NCBI GenBank assembly: GCA_020848745.1
Contig: JADLHM010000110.1
Location: 12,688-76,687 of the forward strand
Source of the DNA: Deltaproteobacteria bacterium
GTDB taxonomy: Bacteria; Desulfobacterota; Binatia; UTPRO1
DNA: 64,000 nucleotides
Direction of reading: 5' to 3'
Shown one piece after another: positions 22,219-60,705 of this stretch (its first letter is position 1; each line of letters opens with the position of its first letter). Made by a program: the position numbers and the translations under genes. Under the pieces are notes generated by a model. The model saw nothing but the letters and a program-made list of their open reading frames with translations. It searched no databases and was not told the DNA's origin.

Positions 22219-22227
22219 ACCGCGGAT

Positions 22228-30209: not shown

Positions 30210-30235
30210 GCGTCGCCGCGGCGAAGGTCCGAGAC

Positions 30236-31861: not shown

Positions 31862-31874
31862 TGCAGGAGCGTGT

Positions 31875-33596: not shown

Positions 33597-33620
33597 CGCT
33601 CGAGAAGGACGAGGCCGACG

Positions 33621-35743: not shown

Positions 35744-35755
35744 GGAGATCCGCCA

Positions 35756-37237: not shown

Positions 37238-37271
37238 TCCCGTTCGGATTGCGAACAGAGCGAGGTGTGAG

Positions 37272-38744: not shown

Positions 38745-38809
38745 TGGTCCGGCGCGATGGTCAATCCACCGGCACGGGCTTCGGGCTCACCGTTCTCCAG
38801 CCGCCACGT

Positions 38810-38847
38810 CAGTGCCGACGCCGCTGGTCACAGCAACGTCGGCACTG
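38810..38847. terminator. bidirectional stem-loop between convergent genes
   Basis: Perfect 11-bp inverted repeat CAGTGCCGACG-N16-CGTCGGCACTG, 65 nt after the paralog G stop, spanning the stop codon of the minus-strand secreted protein gene. Confidence 0.35.
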
Positions 38848-39745
38848 GCGGTAGCAGGTAACCGGTGCCGAAGGTCCCGAGTGCTTCGGCGAAGAAGATC
38901 AGCCGGGTCGCGCGCGGGGGAAAGACGAACGAGGTGAAGCGGATGCTGCCGCTCGAGCCGCCGACGTCGGCGCCCACGACCGTCGCGAGGTTGGTCACCA
39001 CGACGCCCGTCGCCGTGAATCCGGTGTCGGCGATCGTGGATCCGTCGGCGCCCGCGGCGAAGACGTTCCAGTCCGTCGCGCCGACCTGCGCGCGGAGCGG
39101 CAGGCCCGAGACATCCTCGAAGTTCACGAAGATGAGCTGGTCGCCCCCGAGATCCGAGGAGGCGAGATCGTCCGGGTTGTAATAGGCGGAGAGATCGAGG
39201 CCACTCGGGAGGATCGGCCGCAGCGAGACCATCTGGTTGTCGATGGTGGCGCCGAAGTCGGGAAAGCTGTCGTCGGCGTTCACGGCCGAGCGCGCCGCGG
39301 CGGGGGCGCCCCACGCCGAGCCGGTCGCGAGATTCGCGACCGTGAAGTTGCCGGTGAGGGCGGCGCTCACGATGGCCGTCCCGACCTCGTTCACGCCGGT
39401 TGCGAAGGCGGCGCCGGCCTGCGCGGGGAGACCGCTCGCGCGCAGCTCGCCGACGTCGAGCACGCGGAGCCCGAACGCGGGCAGGGTGATCGTGTGGGCG
39501 AACGGCACACCGTCGAAGCCGGGCGCGTAGAAGAGCACCGTGACCGTCAACTCGCCCGGCATGACGTTCCGCACGGTGAGAAACGTGGTGAAGTTCTCTC
39601 GCGCGTCGTAGTAGAAGACCAGCTGGTCGCCCTGGGTATCGGGCCGCTCGAGCGCCGCCGGCGCTGGAGGGATGAATGCTTCGACCTGCGAGGTCCATCC
39701 CAGGAGCCACCACGCCACGAGGGCCAACACCGTCCGTCTCCGCAT
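38828..39745 (-). CDS. secreted hypothetical protein (Gly/Ala/Thr-rich, signal peptide)
   Basis: ORF 38828..39820 trimmed to MRRRTVLALVAWWLLGWTSQVEA (signal peptide) with GGAGG RBS. No family recognised. Confidence 0.5.
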   Translation of the reverse strand: MRRRTVLALVAWWLLGWTSQVEAFIPPAPAALERPDTQGDQLVFYYDARENFTTFLTVRNVMPGELTVTVLFYAPGFDGVPFAHTITLPAFGLRVLDVGELRASGLPAQAGAAFATGVNEVGTAIVSAALTGNFTVANLATGSAWGAPAAARSAVNADDSFPDFGATIDNQMVSLRPILPSGLDLSAYYNPDDLASSDLGGDQLIFVNFEDVSGLPLRAQVGATDWNVFAAGADGSTIADTGFTATGVVVTNLATVVGADVGGSSGSIRFTSFVFPPRATRLIFFAEALGTFGTGYLLPPVPTLL

Positions 39746-40185
39746 ACCGCCTCCTCGCCGATGGAGTGTCCGTGAAGCGCCCCCGCTGCCGTCGCCGGGC
39801 GGCTGCGGACACGCCTTCACGGATCTCGAACAGCCCTAACCGAGCACGTCCCCGGCGTCTAGTGAGATGAGGTCCATCATGCTTCGGGCTGACGTTCTTC
39901 GCGATGGCGGCGATGCTCTTTCGGCTCACCCCGAGTGCGAGTAGAGCCACAAGCCAAACAAGGCCGCGCTCAGGAGCACCAAGGCCTCACAGCAAGCGAT
40001 GAAGACGATGAGGCGCTCCCCCGTCCGGGCCTTCGGTTCGTCCGGATCGAGCAGGAAGCCGCGTTCCGTACGCTCGACTCCGAACCAACGCGACCATCGG
40101 CTTCCCGCCATGCCGCGGTCCTACCCGGAGCCGCCGACGGAATCCGCGGCGCGGACGTCCACGCCGTACGTCGGCGCGAGCCGCT

Positions 40186-40740
40186 TCACCGCTGCGCGGC
40201 GGCCGACGCCTGCAGGCCCGACGCCGGCTCGTAGGCGAGCACCTCGACCAGGAGGACCCGCCGGCGGGTCGTGCCGACGGTCCGGCGATAGCGGACGAGC
40301 CGCCCCGTTTCGGGGTCGAACTCGGCGCGCAGGTCGACCGCCGGCGTGTCGCCGACCGCCTCGATGGTCGTCCAGCGGAGATCGGTCTGTAGCAGGTCGA
40401 AGATCCCCTGGACCGAGTAGTCGTCGCGCTCCCGGTCGGCGCCGCCGACCGGGTGGCCGTCGCGGGTGCGCTTCACGAGGGTGCCGCCCGCCACCTCGAT
40501 CTCCCATACCTCCACCGGAGCGCGTGGCGGCCGCACCCGCACGACCGCGCGATAGGAGCTGGAACCGTGCGCCTGCCAGCGCTGGCGGGCCGCCGCCAGC
40601 GACGCCTCGGTCAACGGCTCCATCGGGGGCGGCCCGAGCAGTGAGCAGCCGGCGAGCAGCAGCAGGACGGCTCCCCATGCCGTCCTTGCCCGCCGGCTGG
40701 TCGTCGCGTGACCAGGGCGTGCCGTGCCTGAGTCGGTCAC
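40186..40740 (-). CDS. hypothetical lipoprotein
   Basis: 184-aa ORF with signal plus LLAGCS lipobox. No family recognised. Confidence 0.45.
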   Translation of the reverse strand: MTDSGTARPGHATTSRRARTAWGAVLLLLAGCSLLGPPPMEPLTEASLAAARQRWQAHGSSSYRAVVRVRPPRAPVEVWEIEVAGGTLVKRTRDGHPVGGADRERDDYSVQGIFDLLQTDLRWTTIEAVGDTPAVDLRAEFDPETGRLVRYRRTVGTTRRRVLLVEVLAYEPASGLQASAAAQR

Positions 40741-40760
40741 GCGAACCTCCTTACTTCACT

Positions 40761-43175
40761 TCAGGACGTCAGGGCGTGCTCGATCTCTTCCTCGTGGGCG
40801 GCCCAGTCCTTCTCGTAGACCGTCCATTCGCCTTCCTCGAGCTCGAGCTCACGAACGAGCACGCGGCCCCTCGACAGGATGAACCAGAGGAGAGGCAGGA
40901 CGCCGCCGAAGAGGAAGATGACCCCTCCGATCGTGCGCAGCCAGGTCAACTTCACCCACACGGGGCCGGTCACGAAGTCGTTGGTCCGGGCGTACCAGAA
41001 CCCGTGCGTCACGACCGCCGCCATCTGATACAGACCGACGGGAAACAGATCGAGCACCATCATCAGCACGAGTCCAGCCTGGAGCGACCAGAAACTCGTC
41101 CGGAGGAGCTTCTCGTTCCAGGCGGCGCGCGGGAACAAGTGCTGGCAGCAGAACAGTACGCCAGCCAGGGCGATGTTGCCCTTCACCCCGAACATCGCGG
41201 CGTGGGCATGATTGTGCGTCAGGTACGTCCCGTGCTCGAAGTAGTTCACGATCGGAAGGTTGATCAATGAGCCGAAGACCCCCGCGCCGACGATGTTCCA
41301 GAAGTTGCATGCGAGGATGAACAGCCACACGCCTTCCATCACGAATTTCTGCTTCCCTTGGGCCCTGTGCTCGCCCGCCCGGAGCTTCTCGTTCCGCATG
41401 CGCCACGCGTCCAGCGTCATCAGCAGGAGGGGCAGCACCTGCATGGTGGAGAAGACGCTCCCGAGCGCGATGATGCCCGTCGGCTTGGCGATCCAGTAGA
41501 AGTTGTGGGAAATGCCGACGATCGCCGTGATCAGAAACATCATCACGGCCAAGAAGATGACCCGTTCCGCCATGGAGCGGTTCAACAGTCCCATCTGCAC
41601 GAGCAGATAGGCGACGATGCAGGTCGTGAACACCTCGAACGTGACCTCGACCCACATGTGCACGGTCATCCAGCGCCAGTAGTCCGTGATGGCGAAGTTC
41701 CCGCTCGGCGTCGCGCCGAGCCCGAAGAACAGGAACAACACCATGATGCCGCTGCCGTAGAACAGCCATGCTGGCACCGACCACATGTTCTGCTTCGTGA
41801 TCCACGGCCGCACGCCCCGGTAGATGATCGCGATCCAGAGTACGAACGAGGCGAGCATCAGGATGTGCCAGAAGCGGCCGAGCTCCATGAACTCCCAGCC
41901 CTGGCTCCCGAGCCAGTACGACGCGGTGTCGCTCATGTATCCCATGTGTCCGAAATAGATGCCGAACAGCGCGCCGGCGCCGACGATCACGCAGAGCGCG
42001 AACAGCAAATTGATCAAGAAGCGCTGCCCGTTCGGTACGCGCGAGAGCCGCGGCAAGAAGAAAATCGTGTAGCCGACCCAGCACATGAAGAACCAGTAGA
42101 TCTGCAGGATCGTGTGCCACGCTCTGGTCACCGTGAAGGAGAAGGGGACGCCGAGAACCTTGACGATCGCCGTCCCGGGTCCGCCGCTGACGAAGTCCTC
42201 GGCGCTCAGGATGCCGGCGAGGACCTGGGCCAGGAAGAGGATCACGGCGAACGCGAAGAACTTGTAGGTGGCGCGTTGCGTGGGTCGAACGAACTCGTAG
42301 CCGCGCTCCAGCTCCGCGGTCGTCAGCGTTCCGCCGTTGGCGCCGTTGAACGGATCGCCGGGCAACTCCTTCATCTGGCCGTAGACGTAGAGCACCAGCA
42401 TCGCCCCCGCGAACAGCACCAGGATCGACAGGAAGCTCCACATCACGGTCGGCGTGGTCGGCACGTTCCCGGCGTCGGGATCGTACGGCCAGTTGTGCGT
42501 GTAGCTGTAGGGCTCACCCGGCCGCTTGGCGCCGGAGACCCAGCCGCCCCAGAAGAAGTATGCGGAGAGCGCCCGCAGGTCGTTCGGGTCGGTGATGTAG
42601 TTCGCCAACCGGAACTTCGCCGGATACGTCGGGTCCGTGAACACCCGCGCATAGTGCGTCTGCAGATCCTGATACGCGCGGATCTGGGCGTCGTTGATGC
42701 GGATGACGCCCGCGGCCTCGTCGTAGCCGTTCTCCTTGATCTCGCGCTGCACCCGCACCGCGATCGCGTCGCGGTCGGTTTGGCTCGAGGTGCCGCCGCT
42801 CGCCGCTTGGGCCTCGTAGAACGACCGCATGGAGACGACCGTGTGGTGCAGGGCCTCGGCGGTGAAGTCCGGTCCCCGTTCCGCGCCGTCGCCCCAGAAC
42901 GATCCCCAGGACATCAGGCCGCGGATGTGGAACAGCTCCTGTCCGCGCAGGATGTCGGAGAGCGGGATCACCTCCTTGCCGGTGCTGGCCGACACGAACG
43001 GAACGCGCGGCGGAGCGCTGCCGTACGTCCAGGTGCCGAGAGCGATCAACCCGAGCAGGCTGACCGCGGTGACGATCGCGAATTGGGTCAGCCAATTCGG
43101 CTTGGCGAGCATCCATTTGCCGAGGTTCTGCCTCGTCCGGGAGTTTCGGGTGCGTGCTTTCACGTCAGTGTGCAT
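40761..43175 (-). CDS. norZ: quinol-dependent nitric oxide reductase (qNOR, NorZ-type, large single subunit)
   Basis: 804 aa. N-terminal TM plus periplasmic domain fused to a 12-helix heme-copper oxidase core. Conserved His ligands including HNHAHAAMFGVKGN and GHMGYM. Start may be the internal Met (MLAKPNW). Confidence 0.85.
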   Translation of the reverse strand: MHTDVKARTRNSRTRQNLGKWMLAKPNWLTQFAIVTAVSLLGLIALGTWTYGSAPPRVPFVSASTGKEVIPLSDILRGQELFHIRGLMSWGSFWGDGAERGPDFTAEALHHTVVSMRSFYEAQAASGGTSSQTDRDAIAVRVQREIKENGYDEAAGVIRINDAQIRAYQDLQTHYARVFTDPTYPAKFRLANYITDPNDLRALSAYFFWGGWVSGAKRPGEPYSYTHNWPYDPDAGNVPTTPTVMWSFLSILVLFAGAMLVLYVYGQMKELPGDPFNGANGGTLTTAELERGYEFVRPTQRATYKFFAFAVILFLAQVLAGILSAEDFVSGGPGTAIVKVLGVPFSFTVTRAWHTILQIYWFFMCWVGYTIFFLPRLSRVPNGQRFLINLLFALCVIVGAGALFGIYFGHMGYMSDTASYWLGSQGWEFMELGRFWHILMLASFVLWIAIIYRGVRPWITKQNMWSVPAWLFYGSGIMVLFLFFGLGATPSGNFAITDYWRWMTVHMWVEVTFEVFTTCIVAYLLVQMGLLNRSMAERVIFLAVMMFLITAIVGISHNFYWIAKPTGIIALGSVFSTMQVLPLLLMTLDAWRMRNEKLRAGEHRAQGKQKFVMEGVWLFILACNFWNIVGAGVFGSLINLPIVNYFEHGTYLTHNHAHAAMFGVKGNIALAGVLFCCQHLFPRAAWNEKLLRTSFWSLQAGLVLMMVLDLFPVGLYQMAAVVTHGFWYARTNDFVTGPVWVKLTWLRTIGGVIFLFGGVLPLLWFILSRGRVLVRELELEEGEWTVYEKDWAAHEEEIEHALTS

Positions 43176-43214
43176 GTGATGATCCTCCTCACGTGTGCGT
43201 CACTGTGGCGGGGC

Positions 43215-43667
43215 TCACGACGCGAACGCCGTGGGCACCTCGGCGGCGCCGTTGAAGAAGCGCTGCAGGCTCTGGTTGTACCGATAGAAGGCGTCTACCT
43301 CGAGTTGATCCGGTCCGCTGACGCGCATCGGATCGTCGGGGAACGTCAGGTAGTTGAGCGTGTGCGTGAGGTCGGGCCCGGCGTTGGCGCGGATGTTCTC
43401 GATCATCTCGCGCCAGGTCTCGAGCGAGGCCTCGAGCACGAAATGCTCGGACGTCGCTTCCTTCAGGTTGGCCAGCTTCCGCACCGAGGATGTCTTGAAG
43501 CCGTCGAACCCGACCTCGTAGAGCTGCGTGCCCGCGGGAGCCTCGACCTGGACCACCATCGTGCACTCGAGGGGGCCGAGTTCGCGGTACCCTGCTTCGT
43601 CCTGGTCCATGCGGCGCGCGAGCGCCTCGAACCACTGCGTCGACGGAAACAGCGTCGTGTCGGTCAT
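43215..43667 (-). CDS. hypothetical protein (SCP2/sterol-carrier-like?)
   Basis: 150-aa acidic soluble protein MTDTTLFPSTQWFEALARRMDQDE.... Between the diiron protein gene and norZ. Assignment tentative. Confidence 0.45.
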   Translation of the reverse strand: MTDTTLFPSTQWFEALARRMDQDEAGYRELGPLECTMVVQVEAPAGTQLYEVGFDGFKTSSVRKLANLKEATSEHFVLEASLETWREMIENIRANAGPDLTHTLNYLTFPDDPMRVSGPDQLEVDAFYRYNQSLQRFFNGAAEVPTAFAS

Positions 43668-43681
43668 GGGATGGTCTCCTC

Positions 43682-44785
43682 CTAGGCAGCGAGATCTTCG
43701 TACGGGATCTCTTTGGGTATGGTCAGGCGCGGCTCGCGATCGAGCCCCGCGATCTCGAGGCGACGCAGGTATTCCTTCACCTGCTTGGCGTAGATGAACG
43801 CCATGCGCTGCATGCCGAGCTCGATGTTGGCGAGCCCGCCGCCCGCGAGGATCGCGCGCGGCTCCGACGTTTGCGGTTCGAGCGTGAGCGTGAAGATCGC
43901 CTGCTCGCCGAGGTCGAGGATCTTGTGCACCTGCTCGGCGCGGTCGGGATGGCGCTCGAGGAAGTACTTGAGGTGCTTCACGCCGTAGGCGACGTGGCGC
44001 GCCTCGTCCTGCATGCAGAGGCGGAAGATCGCCTTCTCAACCTCGGTCGGGGCGAGGAACTCACCCTGGCGGAAGAGTGTGAGGACGAAGCCCTCGCCGA
44101 AGATGTGCATGAGGGCGCTCGCGGTCGTGTAGTCCGGCGCCTCGAGGATGGTCGCGAGGAGCTCCTCCTGGCCGGGCGACGCCATCAGGAGGCCGCCGCC
44201 GTTGGCGAGCGCGCGCTTGCGGAAGACGTCGAGGTGGCGCGCTTCGTCGAAGATCTGGCTCGCGAGGAAGAGTTTCACCTCGTGGAAGTCGTGGTTGATC
44301 CGGCAGAGCCACTTGGCCGGCATGTCGCCGGCGACGAACTCGACCTCGGTCAAGCCCGTGCACATCTGGCAGACGGCGCGCTCGATGTCGTCGGGGAGCT
44401 TCTGGAGCTTGTCCCACGGGACGTCGGTGACCGAGTTCCACTGCCGAACGACGGCCTCGTCGTAGAGCAGGCCGGCGTTTTCCGCCCAGACCTCGGACAT
44501 CTCGTTCATCGTGTACATGGGGAGGGACCGGGTGCCGGGCGGCACTTCGCAGCCGCGCGGTGCCATGCTGCCGTGCTCCGAGCCGTGCTCGGGCACCTGT
44601 CCGTAGTAGCCCGTCTCGATGTCGCGCATACGGAGCCCCGTGGGGCCCGCCGTGGCCTGGTGTCCCCATCCCGCGGGATTGGCCTGCATCCATTTCAGGT
44701 CGAAGTTGCCCTTCGCCATGTCTCGCATGCGGTCGAGTCCGACTTCGACGGTCGGGGTGTATTTCCCTGGGGGGTAGTTGCTCAT
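43682..44785 (-). CDS. ferritin-like diiron-carboxylate protein (putative diiron oxygenase, AurF/R2-like ligand pattern)
   Basis: 367 aa. Ligand pattern TEVEF ... FDEARH ... GEGF ... QDEARH (E, ExxH, E, ExxH) characteristic of dinuclear iron four-helix-bundle enzymes. Confidence 0.6.
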   Translation of the reverse strand: MSNYPPGKYTPTVEVGLDRMRDMAKGNFDLKWMQANPAGWGHQATAGPTGLRMRDIETGYYGQVPEHGSEHGSMAPRGCEVPPGTRSLPMYTMNEMSEVWAENAGLLYDEAVVRQWNSVTDVPWDKLQKLPDDIERAVCQMCTGLTEVEFVAGDMPAKWLCRINHDFHEVKLFLASQIFDEARHLDVFRKRALANGGGLLMASPGQEELLATILEAPDYTTASALMHIFGEGFVLTLFRQGEFLAPTEVEKAIFRLCMQDEARHVAYGVKHLKYFLERHPDRAEQVHKILDLGEQAIFTLTLEPQTSEPRAILAGGGLANIELGMQRMAFIYAKQVKEYLRRLEIAGLDREPRLTIPKEIPYEDLAA

Positions 44786-44997
44786 CGTGGCCTCCTGTTA
44801 GTGTGTGCGTTGACCGCCGCCGCGGCGCGCCGCCGCGAGAGCAGGATGTCTGCAGGGTCCAGCGTACGGATCACTGTGCAGCCTTCCTACCGGTTGGACG
44901 GCTGCGCGGGATGACGTCGGTCATGGTTCACGATGACGCATCGCCACGGGGTGGCCGACACGGGGCAAGGAGGACTCCGTGGCGGTCCGTGGTCAGG

Positions 44998-47427
44998 TCA
45001 TCCCGCCACTCCCGACGCGAACGGCGCCCCCGTGCCCCCGCCGATGCCGTGCTCGGTGCGCCGGATGATCTCGTCCTGCATCTCGGGTGTGAGGTCGCCG
45101 AAGTAGGCGCAGTAGCCAGAGATGCGGACGAGCAGGTGTGGATGCCGCTCGGGGTGGGCGCGGGCTTCACGCAGGACCGCGGTGTCGAGGACGTTCGTCT
45201 GGAGCTGCATGCCGCCGCGACGGAAGTAGGCGCCGAGCAGGGCGACGAACGCGGCGCGTCCGGTGTGACCGCGGAGCGTGTGCGGATCGAAGCGCGCGTT
45301 CAGGTTGGCGCCGTTCCGGACGCGGCCGAAGTCGATGCGGTTCACCGAGTTGAAGAGGGCCGTCGGCCCCGCGCGGTCCATGCCGTCGGCGGGTGCGATG
45401 CCCGACGCGAAGGGCGCGCCGCGACGGCGGCCATTGGCCGACGCACCCGTCCGGCTGCCGAAGTACTGGTGCGTCGTCATCGAGTAGAGCCCGGTGGTGT
45501 AGGGGCCGCCACGTGTGTTGGCGTACGCGCCGAGCGCGCGGGTGAAGGCGTCGACGACGTACGCGGTCCACGCGTCGGTCTCGGGCCGGTCGTTGCCGAA
45601 CTTCTCGAGTCGGCGGAGGTATCCGCACAGCTCGTCGTCGGGCAGGTCGCGCTTCAGCTGATCGACGAGCGCGGGCAGCCCGAGCCGCTCGTCCGCGAAG
45701 ACGGCACGCGCGATCGCGTGGAGGCTGTCGCCGGTGTCGCTGGCGCCGACGCCCTGGATGCCCGACCCGTTGTAGACGGCGCCCCCGGCCGTCGAGCACG
45801 TGCCTTGCTCGACGCACCCCGCGAGCAACATGCTGGTGAGGGGCGTCGGGTGGAACTTCCGGTGCGCGCGCTCGACGGCCTGCAGATCGCGCACCAGGCG
45901 GTCGACCTGGAAGGCGAGCTGAGTCTCGAAGGCCGCGCGCACGTCGTCCATCGTTCGCAGCCGCGACGGGTGCGGCGTGCGTGGGCCGCTGCGGCGGCGC
46001 ATGCCGAAGCGCCGCCCCTCGTTCAGCGCCAGCTCGAGGACGATCGGGAGATTGAAGAGCGCCGCGTCCGTCGAACCGAACGTGCGGCCCGGCGCGATTG
46101 GCTCGACGCACCCGCAGATCGCGTAGTCGTGGGCGTCGTCGTCGGCATAGCCGTTTGCTCGGAGCGCGGGGACGATGACGGCATCGTTGTAGAGCGCCGG
46201 AGCGTTGGCGCCGCCGCAGAGCACCTCGGCGACGCGCTCGACGTAGGCGCGTGGCGCCTCCGCGTGCAGGCGCGCGTGGAAGTTCGGTTGGCGCATGCGG
46301 AGCTCGTCGGCGAGCTCGAGGAGGACGTAGGTGAGCTCGTTGGTCGCGTCCCGTCCGGCGCGGTCGGTCCCGCCCATCGTGACGGCCTGGCCGCTCATGA
46401 GGCCGCCGTGCATGCGGGTCGCGGTCTCGGAGAACACCGGCACGACCTCGCAGAGCTTGATCGCGAACGCCGCCAGCCACTCCTTGGCGCCCTCGCGGTC
46501 GAGGACGCCGCGCGCGCGGTCGCGCAGGTAGTAGGGCATCAACAGCTGATCGAGGCGCCCCGGACTGATGCCGTTGTCGAGGCTCTCGAGGTTGAGGGCG
46601 ATCTGGGCGAACGTGATCGACTGCACGGCCTCGACGAACGACCGCGCGCCGAAGCGCGGCACGCGGCGGCAGGTCGCGGCGACGAGGCCGAGCTCTGCGC
46701 GCCGCGCCGTGTCCGTCTCGTGGGCGGCGAGCCGTTCCGCGACCGGGGCGTAGCGCTCGCCGAAGCGCGCGAGGGCGTCGGCGATGATGGCGACGCCTTC
46801 GAGGAACGCCCATTGCTCGGACGCGGGCCCGTGGAGCTGCTGGGCGGCGCGCGCCTCCTTCGCGATGCCGTCCGTGCCGATCGCGATCAGCTTCGCGTAG
46901 TCGGGCACGACGTGCGCGATGCCGGCGAGCTCGTTCAGCACGTAGTGCCGCGGCGCGAGCTGCTCGCGCAGGAAGGAGGCCTTGTTCCACGGCGAGCGGT
47001 AGACGCGGAACCCGAGCATGCGCGGCGCCCAGAACGGCATGATGCGCTGCAGGGCGGCGATCTCGTCGCGGCTCACCGCCAGCGGGTTCACGCGCCGATG
47101 GGGAAAAGTCGCGATCTCGCGCAGCATCGCCACGCCGTGCAGCTCGGGATAGATGGCGCCGCCGACGCGCTTCGACGAGAAGTTGCCGACCACGAGCTCG
47201 TCCGGGTGGATGCGGACCTGTTTTTTCGCGAGCACGTGCGCGAGCGCCTCCGCGGCCTGGATCGCGCGCGGTTTCGCCCGGTTGCCGCGGTCCGCGAAGT
47301 ATTCCGTCCAGAGGAGGGCGCGTTCGGGGCACACGGCCGGGGCGGCCTGCTGGACGGCGTCTTTCAGGCGCGCGATGCGCGACGGGGAGACGGAGGCGGG
47401 GCGGAGCTCAGTCGCAGACGACGACAT
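44998..47427 (-). CDS. glycyl radical enzyme, PFL2/glycerol-dehydratase (1,2-eliminase) clade, substrate unknown
   Basis: 809 aa from MSSSATELRPAS (ATG at 47427). Glycyl radical motif RISGYCAYFGDL near the C-terminus. Active-site loop AICGCVEPIAPG (Cys-x-Glu, typical of CutC/HypD/GDH-type eliminases rather than the PFL CC motif). Confidence 0.85.
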   Translation of the reverse strand: MSSSATELRPASVSPSRIARLKDAVQQAAPAVCPERALLWTEYFADRGNRAKPRAIQAAEALAHVLAKKQVRIHPDELVVGNFSSKRVGGAIYPELHGVAMLREIATFPHRRVNPLAVSRDEIAALQRIMPFWAPRMLGFRVYRSPWNKASFLREQLAPRHYVLNELAGIAHVVPDYAKLIAIGTDGIAKEARAAQQLHGPASEQWAFLEGVAIIADALARFGERYAPVAERLAAHETDTARRAELGLVAATCRRVPRFGARSFVEAVQSITFAQIALNLESLDNGISPGRLDQLLMPYYLRDRARGVLDREGAKEWLAAFAIKLCEVVPVFSETATRMHGGLMSGQAVTMGGTDRAGRDATNELTYVLLELADELRMRQPNFHARLHAEAPRAYVERVAEVLCGGANAPALYNDAVIVPALRANGYADDDAHDYAICGCVEPIAPGRTFGSTDAALFNLPIVLELALNEGRRFGMRRRSGPRTPHPSRLRTMDDVRAAFETQLAFQVDRLVRDLQAVERAHRKFHPTPLTSMLLAGCVEQGTCSTAGGAVYNGSGIQGVGASDTGDSLHAIARAVFADERLGLPALVDQLKRDLPDDELCGYLRRLEKFGNDRPETDAWTAYVVDAFTRALGAYANTRGGPYTTGLYSMTTHQYFGSRTGASANGRRRGAPFASGIAPADGMDRAGPTALFNSVNRIDFGRVRNGANLNARFDPHTLRGHTGRAAFVALLGAYFRRGGMQLQTNVLDTAVLREARAHPERHPHLLVRISGYCAYFGDLTPEMQDEIIRRTEHGIGGGTGAPFASGVAG

Positions 47428-48310
47428 CGATGCCTTCCTTTCCGAAATGCCGGGCGAATGGGGCGAGCGCGGCCGGGTCGAGGCGCGGACGGCCGAGCGG
47501 CGCCAGGATGGGCGCGAGGCGCGGAAGCTTGGCCTCGCCGAAGTCGTGGTACGGGAGGCAGCGCAGCGTGCGGTGTCCGTGGCGCGCAAGGAAGCGGGCC
47601 GTCGCTCGGACGTTGTCCGGGTCGTCGTTCAGCCCCGGGATCACCGGCATGCGCGGCTCGACGGCCACCTCGCTCGCGACGAGGCGCGCGAAATTGCGGA
47701 GGATGCGCTCGTTGCCCGCACCGGTCAGGCGCGCGTGCGCTGCGCTGTCCATGTGCTTCAGGTCGAACTGGACGAGGCCGACCCAAGGGAGGAGCGCCGC
47801 GACCTCGCGCCAGCGGAAGAGGCCGCAGGTCTGGAGCACGACGTGGATGCGTTCGGCCGCGAGGCGCGGCAGTAGCGCGCCGAGGTAGCCGGCGTGGATC
47901 GTCGGCTCGCCGCCCGAGAGCGTGACGCCGCCGCCCGACTCCGCGAAGTAGTCCCGGTCCTTCACGACCTCGGCGACGAGCGCGTCGACGGTGTAGCGGC
48001 GGCCGATCACCCGCAGCGCCTCGTGGCCGCACGCGTCGGCGCAGCGCCCGCACGCGTCGCAGCTCGCAAAGTCGATGCGGCGGTCTGGTCCCGACACGAT
48101 CGCGCCACGCGGGCAGGCGGCGGCGCAGCGCCGCTCGCCGGCGCAGCGGTCCGGGTGGAACGCGATTTCCGGTTCGCGCCGGATCGCTTCCGGATTGTGG
48201 CACCAGGCGCAGCGCAAGATGCAGCCCTTGAAAAAGACCGTCGTCCGGATGCCGGGGCCGTCGTGCAGCGAGAAGCGTTGGATGTCGACGACGACGGGAA
48301 GCTCGTCCAT
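47408..48310 (-). CDS. glycyl-radical enzyme activating protein (radical SAM, with two auxiliary ferredoxin-like clusters)
   Basis: 300 aa from MDELPVVVDIQRFSLHDGPGIRTTVFFKGCILRCAWCHN (CxxxCxxC) plus two extra Cys clusters (CAGERRCAAACP, CDACGRCADAC) as in activases of PFL2-type GREs. Alternative start 12 codons upstream (about 48346). Overlaps the GRE start by 20 nt. Confidence 0.8.
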   Translation of the reverse strand: MDELPVVVDIQRFSLHDGPGIRTTVFFKGCILRCAWCHNPEAIRREPEIAFHPDRCAGERRCAAACPRGAIVSGPDRRIDFASCDACGRCADACGHEALRVIGRRYTVDALVAEVVKDRDYFAESGGGVTLSGGEPTIHAGYLGALLPRLAAERIHVVLQTCGLFRWREVAALLPWVGLVQFDLKHMDSAAHARLTGAGNERILRNFARLVASEVAVEPRMPVIPGLNDDPDNVRATARFLARHGHRTLRCLPYHDFGEAKLPRLAPILAPLGRPRLDPAALAPFARHFGKEGIDVVVCD

Positions 48311-48587
48311 CCCCACCAGGCTACCGATCGGTCGGATGGGCTGCATGACGTAGGTCAGCGTGACGGCTGACGTTTGCGGGTCGCTCGGCCGGGACGAGCG
48401 ACGCCGGGACGACGGCGAACCAGTGGGCGTCGTGCGCGGTCCAGCAGCTCGCGAGGAGCACGGCGCGCTGCGTGGGTGTGGGTATCGCGTGCACGTGGGA
48501 CACCGAGACCTCCGAGATCCGTGCCTCCTCGTGCCTCGCGGCGCAAGGAGAGACGGTGACGTCGGTCGCGGCGCGGAGTGACGGTGA

Positions 48588-51500
48588 TCAGCGACAGGCG
48601 AACGTGGCGCCCGTGCTGCTCCACCGGCAGCGCGGCCGCGGCGCGCTCGCGTCGCCGAAGCGGTGCCCGGCGCATTGCCCCGGCGAGGCGCCGAAGGCGA
48701 GCCGCAGCTCGAGCGCGGCGTCGCCGGGCGCGAGCGGGCTCGATCGGCCTCGGCCGCGCAGCGCGACCTCGACGCGCCCGGCGGCCGCTCCGGGGAGGCG
48801 GATCGTCGCGGTACGGATGCCGCCGTGAGCGCCTCCCGGATCGCGATACCGCCACGTCGTCCCGTTGCGATTCCTGCTCCACCCGGCGCCGGTGAACGGA
48901 TCGCGCGCGCCGGCCGGGAGGACGATGCGCTCGCGCAGGTCGCCGGCGCCGGTGCGAAGCTCGATGCGGAGGCCGTGTGCGGACGGGTCGAGGCCTTCGC
49001 CCGGGGGGAGGGCGAGGTCTGCGGCCGCGCGCAGCGCGAGCGTGCCGCGGTTGGCCGTGCGCGCTCCGCCGAGCACGAGCCGCATCCCGGCCCGGAGCGG
49101 CGTGCCCGCGAAGGCGTGCGTGCACTGGCCGCTCGGCGTGCAGGCGTCGGTGGTGCAGGGGTCGTCGTCGTCACAGTCGCCGTCCGCGTCGCAGATCGGC
49201 GGCACGAGCGCCGTCGCGGCGCTCGCCATCGCGATCGGCGCGCCCCGGCCGGTCGCCACCCAGAGATCGTGCAGCGTCGCGCCGGTCGCATCCGTCACGT
49301 TGCCATCGCGGAGCGCCTCGATGTAGTGGCGCGGCGTGTTCTGATAGTAGAGTTCGACGTCGGCGCGTGTGGTGCCGGGGGGGATTCCGAAGCGGACGTC
49401 GTCCCAATACTGCCCGTCCGCGTAGCTCGCGCCCACCACCGGCGCGCCCGCGTCCGCGAACGCGGTGTTCGCGAAGCCGCGCGGCGGAATGCGGTTGTCC
49501 TTCTCGATCGTGTCGGCGAGCGCCATGTGCGTGGTGGGCCCGGCCGGGAGCCCCGTGAGCGCCGCCGCCTCGGCGCTCAGGCCGACGTGCATCTCGTAGA
49601 CGACGGTCGAGGCCTCGTCGAGTTCGGCCGTCGCCGCGTCGTAGCGGCCGTGCTCGGCGACGAGCGCGCCGGTTTCGTCGCGGAACGCGACGTGCAGCCA
49701 GACGCGCCGCCCCTCGATGTGGCCGGTCGGGAGCTTGTGGCCGGTCTCGTTGGTCACGCGCACGACGAGTTGCGCTCCCTCCTGGGTGAGCGCGAGCGAC
49801 GCGGCCCGCTCGAGCATGGCGACCGCGGCGTCGCGTCCGCGGGCGAGCGCGGCCTGGTCGACCGTGGGATCGAGACGCGTTGCTTCCGCGATCAGGTCGA
49901 GCACCGGCGCGGCGGCGCCGGCGAAGTCATGGAGGGCGAGGTCGCCGCGCACGGTGCCGTAGACGCACCCGCGGCCGACCGCGCGCGGCATGTGGCAGTC
50001 CTGGCAGGTCGACACCACGCCTCCGCCCACGCCGCCGAAGCGTCCGCCCGTGTCGACGCCGCCCGCGGCGAAGGCGCTGAGCTTCCATTCCGTGTAGGTG
50101 CGCTCGAGGGGGAACTGCATGCCAGGATCGTGCGTCGGGCTCGGCACCCCCATCGTGTTGTAGCGATACGTGCCGTCGGGGTCGCGCGTGACGGCGAGGT
50201 TGCCGACGTCGTGGCAGGTGCCGCAGAACTCGCCGCGCGCATGGAACGGGGAGACGATCCACGCGTGCATCGCGAGCGGATCGGCGCGCGGGCCCCGGCG
50301 CGTGCCGCTCGGGTCGAGGACGAACATGGCGTTCCCGTAGTGGGCGGGAATCGCCGAGAGGCCCGCCAGGATGTCCGCGTCCGCGTCCGGGCTCGTGCCG
50401 GGTACGAAGAGCGGGTCGACCATGCTGTGGCAGAAGTGGCAGGAGACGCCTTGGCGATCGGTCGCGTCGAGGAGCCGGCCGTCGGGTTCCTCGGCGTGAC
50501 CCGTGACGATGCTGAGGGGGACGTGGCAGCGCAGGCAGTAATAGCCGACGCTCGGCACGTCCTGGACGGCGGTCGTGAGCTGCGCGAAGAAGAGCGGATC
50601 GCGTCCGGCGTGCGCCATCAGGCTTCCCGACCAGCGCGCCACCGGATCCACCGCGGCGTCGTAGCCGCCGTGGCAGGAGGCGCACTCCGAGGGCTCGAGA
50701 AGCACGTGAGGCGGCACGTCGCCCGTCTGGGTGCCGGGGACGTGGAAGTCCTCGCAGAGCGGCGGGACGGCCGTGCAGACGCCGGCCGCGCACGCCAAGC
50801 TGCCGCCGCAGGTGCTGCCGGGACCGCACGCGGTGCCGTCGGAGAGCGGCGCGTGGCCGCAACCGTCGAGAGGGTCACAGGCGTCGTACGTGCAGGGATT
50901 GTGGTCGTCGCAGTCGAGCGCGGGGGCGCCGGTGCAGACACCGGCGAGGCATTGCGCGATCCCGTTGCAGACCGTGCCGTCGTCGCACGACGCGCCGTCG
51001 GACACCGTCGTCCGCACGCAGCCGCCGACGAGGTCGCACCGCTCGTCGGTGCACGGCTCACCGTCGTCACAGTCGAAGTCGTCGTGGCACGCGCTCACGA
51101 ACGCAGCGGTAATGGTTGCGTCGGTGGCTGGCACCGTGAGCGCGTGCGCGCGGAGCCCTCCGTCCGACCACGACGCGAAGAGCCAGTCGACGCCGTCCAG
51201 CGCCTGCGGTGCCGGCGCGTCGACGGCGAGCGCCGCACCGACGACGGCGGTGCGGACGAAGGGCGTCACCGCGGCCGCCGACTCGACCACGAGGGTGAGA
51301 CCGGGCGGCGTGGAAGCGAAGGTGAGATCGACCGTCTCCGGGTCGAGCGCAATGCTCGCGGTATGCTCGAGCCCGCCGGAGTCGGTCGCGGTCAGGTGGA
51401 GCAGGAGGCGCGCGGGGAGCTCGCCGGGATCGGGAGCGGCGAAACTCCCCGAGGCCACGCCGGTCGCCGTGGCGACGGTCTCGGTCGTGCAGGCGCCGGC

Positions 51501-53018
51501 GCAGCGTTCGAGGAGGAGCGTCCACTCGAGCGCCGCGGGCGGCAACGCGCCCTCCTCGGGATCGGTCGCCGCGCCGGCGAAGTCGATGGGCGCGCCGACG
51601 CGCCAGAGCTCGGTCGCGGCGGGCGCCGTGATCACCGCGGTCGGCGGCGTGTTGGTCGAGACCCATTGGACGCGACGCACGCTGCCGCCGCTGAAGTCGA
51701 CGTAGAAGAGATCGCCGCCGGGACCGGTCTCGAGCGCGACCGGCGAGGCGGCGCCGTCGACGAAGACCGCGCGCGTGGCCGGGTCGGGCAGACCGTCGGC
51801 GCCGGCGCGCATCGACCAGATGCAGCCGCGTGAGAAGTCGGCGAAGAAGAGCGCCCCGTCGTAGGCCGCGGGGTAGCCGCCGCCGGCGTGGAAGGCGAGG
51901 CCCGTGATCGCAGAGTTGCCGGCGCCGCACGACTCGTCGAGCGTCATGGGCTCGCCGTGCCGATACGCGAAATAGGGGGGGGTGGTCGCCGCCGGGCTCG
52001 CGTAGATGGCGTCGCACCGGGCCAGGCCGGCCGCCTCGTAGAACGGCTGGCGGTCGGCGCCTTCGTAGCAGGGCCAGCCGAAGTTCGGTGTGCCCGGGTC
52101 GGCGGCGTTCGCGATGCGGTCGATCTCCTCGATCGTGTCCCAGCCGACGTCGCCGACCCAGAGCTCCGCGGTGCCGGGCCGGAAGGCCATGCGGTACGGG
52201 TTGCGGAGCCCGAAGGCGACGACGCGGCCGTCGGCGGGTGCGAGCAGATCGACGCGCAGGATCGTGCCGTCGTAGCCGAGCGGGTCGCCGGCGCTGAGGA
52301 CGTCCTGGCTGCGGAGCGCGCCGCCCTCGGCGCCCGGCGGCGCCGGCGTCGCGCCGCCGCCCGTCGGGTCACCGCAGGGATTGAGCGGGCCGGGACCGAA
52401 CTGCCCGTAATCGACGCCGTTGAAGCTCGCGCCGTCGCCGGCGCCGACGTAGAGCGCGCCGTCGGGACCGAAGGCGAGACTCCCGAGCGAGTGGCTCGGA
52501 TACTGCTGGCACCAATCCTCGAGGAGCACCTGCTCGGGTCCCGCGAGCCCGCCGCCGTCGAGGTCGAGGCGCGCCAGCCTGCCGCCGACGACGCAGCCGG
52601 CGCCGAGCGGATCGGGGCAGCCGTCGGCGGTCGCGCCGACCCATCCCCAGCGCGGCGGTGTGCCGCCAGGCGCCGCGTCGAGCGTGTAGAGGACGAAGAT
52701 CGACGGCACGGCGGGGAAGTCGGGGTGGAGCGCCAGGCCGAGGAGGCCGCGGTCCCAGAAGTTGTGCACGTTGGTGCGGAGGTCGGCGACGATCGTCGGC
52801 GTCGGATCCGCGAGGTCGTCGAACGCCTTCACGATCCCGCTCTTTTCGGTGACGAAGACTCGACCGTCGGGCGCGAAACGTACGGCGGTCGGCTGCTCGA
52901 GCCCGCTGATCGCGATCGACTCCGCGAAGCCGGCGGGGAGCGTCGTGGCGCCGGCACGGGCGAGCGGCAGGCAGAGCAGGACGATCGACAGGAGCGCGCC
53001 GCGGCGGCGAAAGACCAT
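48588..53018 (-). CDS. secreted multidomain protein: PQQ-dependent sugar dehydrogenase-like beta-propeller fused to Cys-rich repeats and a pentaheme c-type cytochrome
   Basis: 1476 aa. Signal peptide. N-terminal sGDH/sorbosone-dehydrogenase-like propeller (NFGWPCYEG). Myxococcus-type cysteine-rich repeats (CDDGEPCTDERC..., CDDGTVCNGIAQC...). Five CxxCH motifs (CASCH, CLRCH, CHFCH, CGTCH, CQDCH). Confidence 0.75.
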   Translation of the reverse strand: MVFRRRGALLSIVLLCLPLARAGATTLPAGFAESIAISGLEQPTAVRFAPDGRVFVTEKSGIVKAFDDLADPTPTIVADLRTNVHNFWDRGLLGLALHPDFPAVPSIFVLYTLDAAPGGTPPRWGWVGATADGCPDPLGAGCVVGGRLARLDLDGGGLAGPEQVLLEDWCQQYPSHSLGSLAFGPDGALYVGAGDGASFNGVDYGQFGPGPLNPCGDPTGGGATPAPPGAEGGALRSQDVLSAGDPLGYDGTILRVDLLAPADGRVVAFGLRNPYRMAFRPGTAELWVGDVGWDTIEEIDRIANAADPGTPNFGWPCYEGADRQPFYEAAGLARCDAIYASPAATTPPYFAYRHGEPMTLDESCGAGNSAITGLAFHAGGGYPAAYDGALFFADFSRGCIWSMRAGADGLPDPATRAVFVDGAASPVALETGPGGDLFYVDFSGGSVRRVQWVSTNTPPTAVITAPAATELWRVGAPIDFAGAATDPEEGALPPAALEWTLLLERCAGACTTETVATATGVASGSFAAPDPGELPARLLLHLTATDSGGLEHTASIALDPETVDLTFASTPPGLTLVVESAAAVTPFVRTAVVGAALAVDAPAPQALDGVDWLFASWSDGGLRAHALTVPATDATITAAFVSACHDDFDCDDGEPCTDERCDLVGGCVRTTVSDGASCDDGTVCNGIAQCLAGVCTGAPALDCDDHNPCTYDACDPLDGCGHAPLSDGTACGPGSTCGGSLACAAGVCTAVPPLCEDFHVPGTQTGDVPPHVLLEPSECASCHGGYDAAVDPVARWSGSLMAHAGRDPLFFAQLTTAVQDVPSVGYYCLRCHVPLSIVTGHAEEPDGRLLDATDRQGVSCHFCHSMVDPLFVPGTSPDADADILAGLSAIPAHYGNAMFVLDPSGTRRGPRADPLAMHAWIVSPFHARGEFCGTCHDVGNLAVTRDPDGTYRYNTMGVPSPTHDPGMQFPLERTYTEWKLSAFAAGGVDTGGRFGGVGGGVVSTCQDCHMPRAVGRGCVYGTVRGDLALHDFAGAAAPVLDLIAEATRLDPTVDQAALARGRDAAVAMLERAASLALTQEGAQLVVRVTNETGHKLPTGHIEGRRVWLHVAFRDETGALVAEHGRYDAATAELDEASTVVYEMHVGLSAEAAALTGLPAGPTTHMALADTIEKDNRIPPRGFANTAFADAGAPVVGASYADGQYWDDVRFGIPPGTTRADVELYYQNTPRHYIEALRDGNVTDATGATLHDLWVATGRGAPIAMASAATALVPPICDADGDCDDDDPCTTDACTPSGQCTHAFAGTPLRAGMRLVLGGARTANRGTLALRAAADLALPPGEGLDPSAHGLRIELRTGAGDLRERIVLPAGARDPFTGAGWSRNRNGTTWRYRDPGGAHGGIRTATIRLPGAAAGRVEVALRGRGRSSPLAPGDAALELRLAFGASPGQCAGHRFGDASAPRPRCRWSSTGATFACR

Positions 53019-53314
53019 GAGACCCCTCGATCATACGGTCACGCGGTGGCCCGCGAAAGGGATGAAACGCGTCGAGATGACGTTCGTCAGCGCCATCGTT
53101 GACGCGCGCCGGACCCCCCGCGACTGCCCCCGACGCTGCGCTCTCCGGGCGGCGGGAATATCGCGTCGCGATCCGTCGCGTCGGCGGGAACGGGCGTCCG
53201 GTCCGCGCGGTCGAATCGAATGGCACTGGCTTTGCTGCTCCGAACCATGCGGCGCACGGCGGCGGTGGACGACCTTCACGTTCACCCGCGTGATCCGCCG
53301 CTCGGGAGGACGGG

Positions 53315-56794
<3,480 letters not shown>

Positions 56795-56806
56795 AGGAGG
56801 GGCGAT

Positions 56807-57932
56807 GCCCAAAGTCTACAACTGGCAGATCGGGCGCGAGATGGACTACCCCTACGAAGGGGCGCGGCCGAAGAAGCAGTTCGCGATGCTCTTCGACACC
56901 AACAAGTGCATCGCGTGTCAGACCTGCACGGTCGCCTGCAAGACGACGTGGACCCCCGGTCGCGGCCAGGAGTACATGTTCTGGAACAACGTCGAGACCA
57001 AGCCCTACGGGTACTACCCGCTCGGCTGGGATGTGAAGATCCTCGAGCAGCACGGCGTCCAGGACGTCGGCGGCCCGGTCTACAAGGGCAAGACGCTCTT
57101 CGAGTCGGCGCCGAGCGGCGAGCGCATCCTCGGCTACCTGCCCGAGGATCTCGACTACGCGCATCCGAACGTCGGCGAGGACGACTCCTTCGGCGACATG
57201 CAGCAGGGCGAGCTGCTGCAGATCCCGCACATGCAGTGGATGTATTACCTGCCGCGCATCTGCAATCACTGCACGTACCCGGCGTGCCTCGCGTCGTGCC
57301 CGCGCATGTCGATCTACAAGCGTGAGGAGGATGGCATCGTACTCCTCGACCAGACCCGCTGCCGCGGCTACCGCGAGTGTGTGAAGGGCTGCCCGTACAA
57401 GAAGACGTTCTTCAATCCGATCACGCGCGTCTCGGAAAAGTGCATTGGCTGCTATCCGGCGGTCGAGGGCGGCCGGCAGACCCAGTGCACGATCACCTGC
57501 ATCGGCAAGATCCGCCTGCAGGGTTTCATCGGCAAGCCCGACGAGATCCGCGAGGACAACCCGATCGACTACATCGTGCGCGTCGCGAAGATCGCGTGCC
57601 CGCTCTACCCGCAGTTCGGGCTGGAGCCGAATACCTACTACATCCCGCCGGTCCACGTGCCGCCGCGCTACCTCGTGCAGATGTTCGGCGCCGGCGTCGA
57701 GCGGGCGATCGCGGGGTATCGGAAGGCGGCTGACGACGAGAAGCTGCTCGGGGCGCTGCTTCTCTTCGGCGCGACCCCGATGATCATCCACCACTACAAG
57801 GTCGAGGCGGGGGTCTCGATCGGCTTCGACGAGAAGGGCGGCGAGCTCGTGCGCGTGCCGCTCAGAGAGGCGATCCACGTGCGGGCCGCCTTCGACGAAC
57901 AGCACCAGGCGTACCGCACCAACATCACGTGA
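56807..57932 (+). CDS. type II DMSO reductase-family beta subunit (four Fe-S clusters, NarH/EbdB-like)
   Basis: 375 aa. KQFAMLFDTNKCIACQTCTVACK N-terminal ferredoxin motif plus three further Cys clusters. AAGGAGG RBS. Confidence 0.85.
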
Positions 57933-57943
57933 GGGATCCACGC

Positions 57944-59556: not shown

Positions 59557-59731
59557 CGCGCGCGCATCGCGCCGGGCGGACGGCGAGGACGTACGGCTCC
59601 CCGTGGTGACGTCGGTCAGGGCGTTCGCCCCCAAGCGGTCATCGCGACACGGCTGACGATCCCTTCAACATTGAACGATGACCCATCCCCGTCCGGCAGT
59701 TCCGGAAGCTCCGGCGAGCGCCTCCGGTCCG

Positions 59732-60600: not shown

Positions 60601-60705
60601 TCGCTGCGGCGCTGCGCTGAGGGCTCGGAGGGCTCGGCGGCGCGTCATTCGCCTGGATGACGTCGGTCATGGGATGCCATCCGACCGTTCGGTAGTCGGA
60701 CGTGC

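Follow-up and report, generated by a model that had tools for sequence, protein, structure and literature searches.

What does a glycyl radical enzyme (GRE) act upon when its catalytic residues are those of a dehydratase and the residues that line its pocket match those of no characterised enzyme? The question is raised by a gene pair found within 64,000 nucleotides of DNA from a Deltaproteobacteria bacterium of the Binatia (assembly GCA_020848745.1, contig JADLHM010000110.1, positions 12,688 to 76,687), the whole of which is referred to here as the window. The pair encodes a GRE and the radical S-adenosylmethionine (SAM) enzyme that is its activating partner. A first-pass annotation, made from the sequence alone, had described an eliminase-lineage GRE with a CxE motif that is not a pyruvate formate-lyase (PFL) and has no assignable substrate, and this core reading is upheld. 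On balance the enzyme appears to be a 1,2-eliminase, which would carry out a B12-independent diol-dehydratase-type C-O cleavage on a larger polar substrate. It belongs to a clade that is widespread and uncharacterised, the closest studied relatives of which are the B12-independent diol dehydratases.

The enzyme and its activase

The window has a G+C content of ~70%, and codon-position G+C marks an open reading frame (ORF) at 44998-47628 on the minus strand. The lower coordinate of 44998 in the first-pass annotation was right, and the start of the GRE is the ATG at 47427 rather than the end of a long TTG-initiated ORF that runs up to 47589 and is overextended. The resulting gene (44998-47427, minus strand) encodes a protein of 809 amino acids, to which an identical GRE is on record (P0001). 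In a scan of the window ORFs the protein matched the PFL-like domain (PF02901, E 3.6e-159) and the Gly_radical domain (PF01228, E 1.7e-25), thus it has the PFL-like barrel and the C-terminal glycyl radical domain of the superfamily, with its RVxG-type motif present as RISGY, which contains Gly771. The full glycyl radical motif RISGYCAYFGDL lies at 45091-45126 and the Cys loop GCVEP at 46099-46113 (both minus strand), both of which had been picked out in the first-pass annotation. Within the loop there is a lone catalytic cysteine (Cys440) with a glutamate two residues on (Glu442), which is the CxE arrangement and not the CC of PFL. These two residues are invariant in the clade and align with Cys433 and Glu435 of glycerol dehydratase (GD), with Gly771 aligning with GD Gly763.

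The activase (47408-48346, minus strand, 312 amino acids) has Radical_SAM and Fer4 domains and passes the TIGR02494 model with 297.6 bits against a cut-off of 174, its radical-SAM motif CILRCAWC being found at 48200-48223. Its gene overlaps the start of the GRE gene by 20 nt, and the true start of the activase may be an alternative ATG at 48310, as judged from the position of a regulatory box described below. The same two genes are called, with matching coordinates, in an independent assembly of identical sequence. Comparison with an 89%-identical orthologue (locus L005) gives a dN/dS of 0.16 for the GRE and 0.23 for the activase, and therefore both genes are maintained by selection. The gene pair is a real and intact one, encoding an oxygen-sensitive GRE and the partner that activates it.

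The activase also carries a ferredoxin-like insert (48029-48145, minus strand), for which two extra cysteine clusters had been claimed; the second of these is complete and the first is one cysteine short. Motif 2 is canonical (C96-x2-C99-x2-C102-x3-C106), whereas motif 1 is degenerate (C68-x2-E-x2-C74-x3-C78-P), with a glutamate replacing the second cysteine so that there are seven auxiliary cysteines and not eight. Most activases of the clade have all eight, with about a quarter of those shown being without the second cysteine of motif 1; the others that are without it (L012, L015, L021, L069, L071-L073, L088 and L090) have Ser or Gly as the substitute. This suggests that in a subset of clade activases the auxiliary cluster may be ligated by three cysteines or be missing altogether.

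Distance from known families and spread of the clade

The GRE falls under every curated NCBIfam cut-off. It scores 625.5 bits against a cut-off of 678.2 for TIGR01774 (the PFL2/glycerol dehydratase subfamily), 443.6 and 425.3 against 1000 for the HpfG and HpsG models (NF048009 and NF048011), 439 against 1109 for the PflD-type model NF007437, 408.9 against 1100 for the HypD model NF043068 and 386.7 against 1050 for the CutC model TIGR04394. The top matches among solved structures are near-tied, with PFL2 of Archaeoglobus (AfPFL2, 2f3o) at 468 bits and GD (1r8w) at 465, followed by the propanediol dehydratase (PD) of GRM3 (9rco) at 464 and that of Roseburia (5i2a) at 462; entry 9RCO is the GRM3 1,2-propanediol dehydratase (PMC12756279). 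Scores then fall to 403 for PflD, 342 for YbiW, 309 for HplG, 205 for MASS and 184 for BSS. Identity to the GRE is 36% for AfPFL2, 34% for GD, 37% for 9rco, 30% for CutC and 27% for HypD, and as GRE classes with different substrates share 32-41% mutual identity, the window GRE is equally distant from its relatives or more so. The characterised enzymes with a CxE motif are GD, PD, HpfG, HypD, HpyG, HpzG, CutC, IslA/IseG, HpsG, HplG, YbiW and PflD (PMC13450708). The review from which this list is taken, of June 2026, covers all characterised GREs and has no entry for the clade of the window GRE; it describes entire GRE clades as unvalidated and the function of AfPFL2 as debated (PMC13450708). 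A literature search on Hxd3, Smithella and Syntrophus found nothing relevant to the clade.

It is apparent that the clade is far from rare. When one genome per species was scanned, relatives were found in at least 570 species-level genomes, with carriers amongst the Desulfobacterota, Syntrophia, Spirochaetota, Bacteroidota, Myxococcota, Acidobacteriota, Binatia, Competibacteraceae and others, including metagenome-assembled genomes (MAGs) of Smithella, Syntrophus and Desulfosudis oleivorans. A large protein database holds hundreds of homologues at 55-60% identity from MAGs of Desulfobacterales, Syntrophales, Spirochaetota, Anaerolineae, Myxococcota and others. Clustering of a library at 50% identity reduces the clade to a few representatives at ~780-800 bits, with sister groups at 659 bits or less, and an alignment of 15 diverse members has a mean column identity of 70%. 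A signature of 19 positions (Tyr162, Glu166, His172, Asp284, Asn285, Gly/Ser/Ala286, His340, Gly346, Gln347, Cys440, Glu442, Phe450, Ser452, Thr453, Asp454, Tyr648, Thr651, His653 and Gly771) is found in 67 of 76 loci from many phyla, the sole variation being at position 286, and is kept even in members that are 46-51% identical. GRE clades that await characterisation are numerous, and this one stands out by its unusually wide distribution and its sharply defined pocket signature.

The genes around the pair were surveyed at the same 76 loci, with ORFs called and clustered and the neighbours scanned against Pfam. The activase adjoins the GRE in 49 of them, as found with a crude ORF caller, and is the sole widely conserved neighbour. 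The Pfam scan of 135 immediate neighbours returned 136 different families, the commonest being GntR/FCD regulators (7), SpoIIE phosphatases (5) and acyl-CoA dehydrogenases (3). Recurrence across the loci is weak, with GntR/FCD regulators in 7-8, acyl-CoA dehydrogenase in 5-7 and enoyl-CoA hydratase in 3-5 loci; in the clustering, acyl-CoA dehydrogenase is directly adjacent in ~5 loci and enoyl-CoA hydratase nearby in 3-5. The co-directional downstream genes all differ (LigB, ThiF, a solute-binding protein, a decarboxylase, NUDIX and a cyclase). At the 76 loci the pair is not accompanied by genes for aldehyde or 1,3-propanediol dehydrogenases, for transporters or for other parts of a pathway, nor were microcompartment genes found there. 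Within the window no genes for a microcompartment shell and no cut, pdu, hyp or sulfonate genes came up in the Pfam scans, in which several ORFs had no match, in agreement with the first-pass annotation, and Rfam gave no riboswitch or other RNA match at E <= 1 over 38000-54000. The gene context thus gives no pathway, and its weak beta-oxidation signal is not decisive. An exact match of the pocket to a known GRE, together with cognate pathway genes in synteny, had been named as the finding that would overturn the first reading. Neither was found: in alignments the pocket residues match those of no characterised GRE, the NCBIfam equivalogs are missed widely and syntenic loci elsewhere are without cognate pathway genes.

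A possible link through beta-propeller proteins was considered and rejected, as the glucose/sorbosone-dehydrogenase-like protein of the window and an NHL propeller encoded on a Moraxella plasmid are not homologous and neither recurs at other loci.

Active site, pocket and probable reaction

The pocket residues were mapped by sequence alignment onto GD. The catalytic set of that enzyme (His164, Cys433, Glu435, Asp447, Tyr640 and Gly763) is kept and is invariant in the clade, with the equivalents in the window GRE being His172 (46912-46914), Cys440, Glu442, Asp454 (46066-46068, within the clade motif Ser452-Thr453-Asp454), Tyr648 and Gly771, all on the minus strand. The catalytic His, Glu and Asp of the glycerol and propanediol dehydratases (His164, Glu435 and Asp447) are therefore all present. 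In GD it is Glu435 that deprotonates the C1 hydroxyl and His164 that protonates the leaving C2 hydroxyl (PMC13450708). In the alignment the position of His164 is a histidine in GD, PD, HypD and AfPFL2 and an aspartate in the C-N lyase CutC; the histidine is thus shared by C-O-cleaving enzymes and therefore C-O cleavage is favoured.

By analogy, the activase would use S-adenosylmethionine to set a radical on Gly771, which would then move to Cys440. The thiyl radical of Cys440 would take a hydrogen from a hydroxyl-bearing carbon, Glu442 would deprotonate the hydroxyl on that carbon, and His172 would act as general acid, protonating the neighbouring oxygen leaving group as it departs, after which the product radical would regain a hydrogen from Cys440.

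Such chemistry is that of GD from Clostridium butyricum (1R8W/1R9D) and of the PDs (Roseburia 5I2A and GRM3 9RCO), which share with the window GRE the fold, the Gly, Cys and Glu of the CxE type, the equivalents of His164, Asp447 and Tyr640, and an activase likewise of the ferredoxin-insert type. It might be assumed that the window GRE is simply a divergent but ordinary B12-independent glycerol or 1,2-propanediol dehydratase, as these enzymes are its top characterised matches (465, 464 and 462 bits) and its catalytic His, Cys, Glu and Asp are retained. The pocket makes this distinctly unlikely. GD Tyr339, which is Phe in PD and contacts C3 of the substrate, is replaced by the invariant Gly346, Trp445 and His446 by Ser452 and Thr453, Gly280 and His281 by Asp284 and Asn285, Ser282 by Gly, Ser or Ala at 286, and Phe333 and Asn645 by His340 and His653, with three residues inserted ahead of His172 relative to GD. 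Where the small pocket of the dehydratases is formed by His281, Ser282, Tyr/Phe339, Trp445 and His446, the window GRE has Asn285, Gly286, Gly346, Ser452 and Thr453. In addition the identity of 34-37% is as low as that between GRE classes of different substrate, the score is under the TIGR01774 subfamily cut-off, and neither the window in its Pfam scans nor any of the 76 loci has the genes of a diol pathway, 1,3-propanediol dehydrogenase and aldehyde dehydrogenase, or those of a microcompartment.

The pocket of the window GRE would be wider and more polar than that of GD or PD, with a lining made up of carboxylates, histidines, amides and hydroxyls, and the mapped positions include no invariant Arg or Lys. 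Carboxylates, phosphates, sulfonates and hydrocarbons would suit such a pocket less well than a polyol, an amino-alcohol or a sugar-like compound that is neutral or cationic. To judge from these residues, the substrate is probably of this second kind and exceeds glycerol in size.

The other dehydratase that bears on this is HypD, the trans-4-hydroxy-L-proline dehydratase, a C-O-cleaving eliminase of the CxE type that has a histidine both at the GD His164 position and at that of His653. It differs in its 27% identity, in that its amine-binding Asp278, through which the substrate is held, aligns with Asn285, and in having Leu in place of Asp454; no proC neighbour is found beside the clade GREs.

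Much of the pocket pattern recurs in AfPFL2 (2F3O), which shares Glu166, His172, Phe450, Ser452, Asp454, Tyr648, Met650, Thr651 and Thr652, has Ser for Thr453 and the same three-residue insertion, and has Glu270/Gln271 as conservative equivalents of Asp284/Asn285. It differs in having Phe, Asn and Asn for His340, Gly346 and His653. Because AfPFL2 shares so much of the pocket pattern, it and the window clade may act on related substrates. Its host is an archaeal hyperthermophile. Its own function is debated, so that no annotation can be transferred. The debate is between a dehydratase and an alkylsuccinate synthase, and this raises the possibility that the window GRE joins a hydrocarbon to fumarate in the manner of the X-succinate synthases, as proposed for the Archaeoglobus PflD/PFL2. 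AfPFL2 is the top match in the structural database (468 bits) with several pocket residues in common, Smithella, Syntrophus and Desulfosudis oleivorans MAGs are amongst the carriers of the clade, and beta-oxidation genes are occasional neighbours. Even so an X-succinate synthase is hardly credible, given the weak scores to true synthases (205 bits to MASS and 184 to BSS), the retention of the Glu, His and Asp set of the eliminases, a pocket that is polar and acid-rich rather than hydrophobic, and the 76 loci, which have no conserved neighbour beyond the activase and hence no small accessory-subunit genes; ORFs for small beta or gamma subunits were likewise not found beside the pair in the window. 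A limonene or terpene GRE, for which the CrtI-like flavoproteins of the window had been a prompt, was also considered and dropped; the limonene GRE of the literature belongs with the succinate synthases of the BSS type and is unrelated to this clade.

The invariant carboxylates Glu166, Asp284, Glu442 and Asp454 could hold an ammonium group, and together with the shared CxE motif they allow for a C-N or C-S lyase like CutC or IslA/HpsG that acts on an amino-alcohol or a sulfonate. This is very improbable, as the position of Asp216, which forms the trimethylammonium site of CutC, is His172 in the window GRE and the scores are far below the cut-offs (387 against 1050 bits for CutC, 425-444 against 1000 for HpsG/HpfG). 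Of the Arg/Gln/Arg triad that binds the sulfonate in the C-S lyases IslA/IseG/HpsG and the DHPS dehydratase HpfG, the arginine expected at Cys + 210 (residue 650) is Met or Val, a position taken from the offset and not from an alignment with IslA. No sulfite reductase, sulfite exporter or amine-handling neighbours are found at the 76 loci.

The main rival to an eliminase is a GRE isomerase of the PflD, YbiW or HplG type, which would rearrange a hydroxylated substrate, by ring opening or by breaking a C-O or C-N bond within it, with no net elimination. Isomerases also carry the CxE motif and begin their reaction in the same way (PMC13450708), the match to PflD reaches 403 bits, and a pocket rich in Asp, Asn, His, Gln, Ser, Thr and Tyr is of a polar, carbohydrate-like kind. 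An isomerase is nevertheless rather unlikely, since PflD, YbiW and HplG (403, 342 and 309 bits) all score below the dehydratases at ~465, the PflD-type model NF007437 is missed by a long way (439 bits against 1109), the mapped pocket is without an invariant Arg or Lys for a sugar phosphate, and no aldolase or kinase neighbours occur amongst the 76 loci.

The closest relative in cultured, annotated records is a GRE at 47% identity from plasmids of Moraxella osloensis and Acinetobacter towneri, annotated as a 'pyruvate formate lyase family protein' and also uncharacterised. It keeps the equivalents of His172, the CxE motif, Ser-Thr-Asp, Tyr648 and His653, and has Gly, Glu, Leu, Trp and Glu for Asp284, Asn285, His340, Gly346 and Gln347. 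With five signature positions different it was rejected as a functional proxy, being a member of a sister clade and no guide to function. The gene order is GRE and then activase, with an AraC-type regulator, an NHL propeller and a CMD-family protein as neighbours. The sister-clade pair lies inside a Tn3-family transposon on plasmids of these obligately aerobic Moraxellaceae (L094 10789-16173, Moraxella osloensis plasmid p4; L095, an Acinetobacter towneri plasmid).

A shared FNR/HcpR-type box and the surrounding modules

The expression of the GRE may be tied to that of its neighbours by a palindrome, TGAC-N4-GTCA, which occurs in the window in six exact copies where 0.73 are expected, a number reached in none of 100 shuffles. 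Its consensus is aTGACGTnGGTCAt, and all six copies lie in promoter-side intergenic DNA. The first, TGACGTAGGTCA, is at the activase-GRE promoter and the start of the activase (48346-48357). The second lies in the 212-bp gap between the GRE and a diiron protein gene (44912-44923), where it marks a separate promoter of a diiron-qNOR operon, the third before a flavoprotein operon (27970-27981), the fourth between the gene of a 1476-amino-acid secreted protein and nxrA (53078-53089), and the last two ahead of each of two TetR genes (59607-59618 and 60658-60669). Copies with one mismatch are found at 25126 and 48557-48568. Orthologous boxes are present in L005, at 9068 for the activase and 13186 in the GRE/diiron gap, and also in L007, a locus with a GRE 75% identical to that of the window. 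The box is also found upstream of the diiron gene in a further Binatia locus (L093, 7913), and a GRE-bearing Spirochaetota locus has boxes at its nrfHA and hemerythrin promoters.

The same core is found in the HcpR box of deltaproteobacteria and cyanobacteria, wyTTGACnnnnGTCAArw (PMC1274295). A candidate for the binding protein is a Crp/Fnr-family regulator (61353-62072, minus strand) with cNMP_binding and HTH_Crp_2 domains and an N-terminal C-x2-C-x6-C as in FNR-type oxygen sensors, and this protein may bind the box. If the copy at the activase is a class II FNR-like site centred at -41.5, transcription would start at ~48310, which is the second in-frame ATG of the activase, although this is speculative. 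Across the loci, no convincing enrichment of canonical FNR, CRP or NsrR boxes was found upstream of the activase, and some of the matches were an artefact of coding sequence. The box appears to link a local regulon made up of the GRE, the qNOR module, the Nxr-like genes, the CrtO-like flavoproteins and the two TetR genes, and the GRE operon is probably induced through it when the organism respires nitrogen oxides in the absence of oxygen.

The first-pass annotation had correctly named diiron, SCP2-like and qNOR neighbours, as borne out by Pfam and predicted folds, and had seen in them an odd pairing of anaerobic and oxygen-dependent chemistry, a view that does not hold. They form a four-gene module (40186-44785, minus strand) which is not part of the GRE system. 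It consists of a ferritin-like diiron protein (43682-44785), an SCP2-fold protein of 150 amino acids (43215-43667), qNOR (40761-43175, by its Pfam domains) and a 184-amino-acid protein (40186-40740), with intergenic gaps of only 14, 39 and 20 bp compared with the 212 bp to the GRE. The same four genes occur without any GRE in L093 (8001-12585), and a related arrangement in a gammaproteobacterial locus (L091, 6233-9556) has a shorter heme-copper oxidase (COX1-family) gene instead of qNOR. The module is found in Binatia, Myxococcota and gammaproteobacterial MAGs. Its diiron protein is very conserved (362-367 amino acids), and its small proteins of ~150 and ~181-184 amino acids are not annotated, both belonging to families of widespread hypothetical proteins that occur together. 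By predicted structure the diiron protein (model pLDDT 81) comes closest to the azoxy synthase VlmB, to R2 and R2lox and to an aldehyde-deformylating-oxygenase-like protein, and the 150-amino-acid protein (model pLDDT 80) to SCP2 and UbiJ-SCP2 (E 8e-4, TM 0.44-0.55). The diiron and SCP2-fold proteins are partners of qNOR and not of the GRE. As qNOR is an enzyme of anaerobic respiration, the molybdoenzyme nearby is NxrA-like and all these operons share the box, the pairing is probably that of an anaerobic regulon and there is no paradox. Nitric oxide destroys glycyl radicals and the clusters of activases (bioRxiv 10.1101/2025.02.23.639758), and therefore it would make physiological sense to express a GRE together with a nitric oxide reductase.

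The closest relative, L005 (86-88% identical), has an enoyl-CoA hydratase gene between the GRE and the diiron gene, overlapping the GRE stop codon, and an acyl-CoA dehydrogenase and TetR pair, and the window is without both segments. The sites are window 44925-44977 against L005 12452-13184 and window 39853-39926 against L005 18192-20471. Both differences arose through recent insertion or deletion at the borders of the GRE and qNOR modules.

On the other side of the pair there is an NxrABC-like enzyme of the type II DMSO-reductase family (53315-58798, plus strand), identified by Pfam and its match to NxrA, with alpha (53315-56794), beta (56712-57932) and EB_dh-type gamma (57734-58798) subunits. 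It resembles the nitrite oxidoreductase of the anammox/Nitrospira type, the alpha subunit matching Kuenenia NxrA (7b04_B) over its full length with 858 bits, and in view of this full-length likeness the reading of it as an EBDH-like hydrocarbon hydroxylase was rejected. Given its surroundings, its role is presumably that of a nitrate reductase. Divergent from it, and just upstream of the activase, is the gene of a predicted secreted protein of 1476 amino acids (48588-53018, minus strand) with a glucose/sorbosone-dehydrogenase-type beta-propeller and a Dictyostelium-type repeat, which is conserved in the closest relative only. The setting of nitrogen-oxide respiration is completed by the Crp/Fnr regulator, by NnrS (23842-25128) and by a 514-amino-acid hemerythrin-domain protein (26264-27808), the latter two identified by Pfam and on the plus strand. 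Between them is a luciferase-like oxidoreductase (25181-26221, plus strand), the three genes preceding the flavoprotein operon on its upstream side, and in a relative, L002, a luciferase-like gene 62% identical to it lies two genes from the GRE pair.

The flavoprotein operon (27970-38744, plus strand) has the box at 27970-27981 and then, from 27997, a small ORF and six CrtO/CrtI-like paralogues. Their best NCBIfam match is the beta-carotene ketolase CrtO, far under its cut-off, and one guess at their role is the anaerobic allylic oxidation of an isoprenoid. In L007 the Nxr-like genes, activase, GRE, a 126-amino-acid ORF and at least six CrtO/CrtI-like flavoproteins follow one another and are all co-directional. 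The L007 flavoproteins (12653-22391) are 88-93% identical to those at window 28317-35303, and compared with L007 the flavoprotein block of the window is inverted with the qNOR module in between. The Nxr, GRE and flavoprotein genes may be an island that is one functional unit, although the survey of 76 loci did not find the association of GRE and flavoproteins outside the lineage.

Taken together these features allow a wider proposal, offered tentatively and as one that could well prove wrong. The clade, probably with AfPFL2, may act on a substrate class new to the GRE superfamily, a candidate being a polyol, a glyceryl compound or an amino-alcohol, polar and of larger size, that is ubiquitous in anoxic sediments. 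In facultative lineages such as that of the window it may do so within an FNR/HcpR-type anaerobic nitrogen-oxide regulon, co-regulated with qNOR, the Nxr-like enzyme and the CrtO-like flavoproteins, possibly as one anaerobic catabolic island. Several observations weigh against the main reading, that of a diol-dehydratase-type eliminase under the control of the box. The isomerases PflD, YbiW and HplG share the CxE motif, and the mapped residues cannot separate them from eliminases. It is unusual for a catabolic dehydratase to have no aldehyde or alcohol dehydrogenase, transporter or pathway gene associated with it. Acyl-CoA dehydrogenase or enoyl-CoA hydratase adjoins the pair in ~5-8 loci, which hints at carboxylic-acid/CoA metabolism, for which the polar, acid-rich pocket is no obvious fit. 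Beyond the lineage, enrichment of the box ahead of the activase is weak, with three copies at 67 loci where ~0.5 would be expected, and it disappears when one mismatch is allowed.

GRE eliminases have repeatedly turned out to be the entry points for the anaerobic use of abundant compounds such as choline, hydroxyproline, isethionate and dihydroxypropanesulfonate (DHPS). The substrate of this clade, once found, would extend the set of reactions in the anaerobic carbon cycle of sediments and groundwater, and it could help to settle the twenty-year debate over the function of AfPFL2. The pocket signature provides a practical marker for choosing the representatives of the clade.

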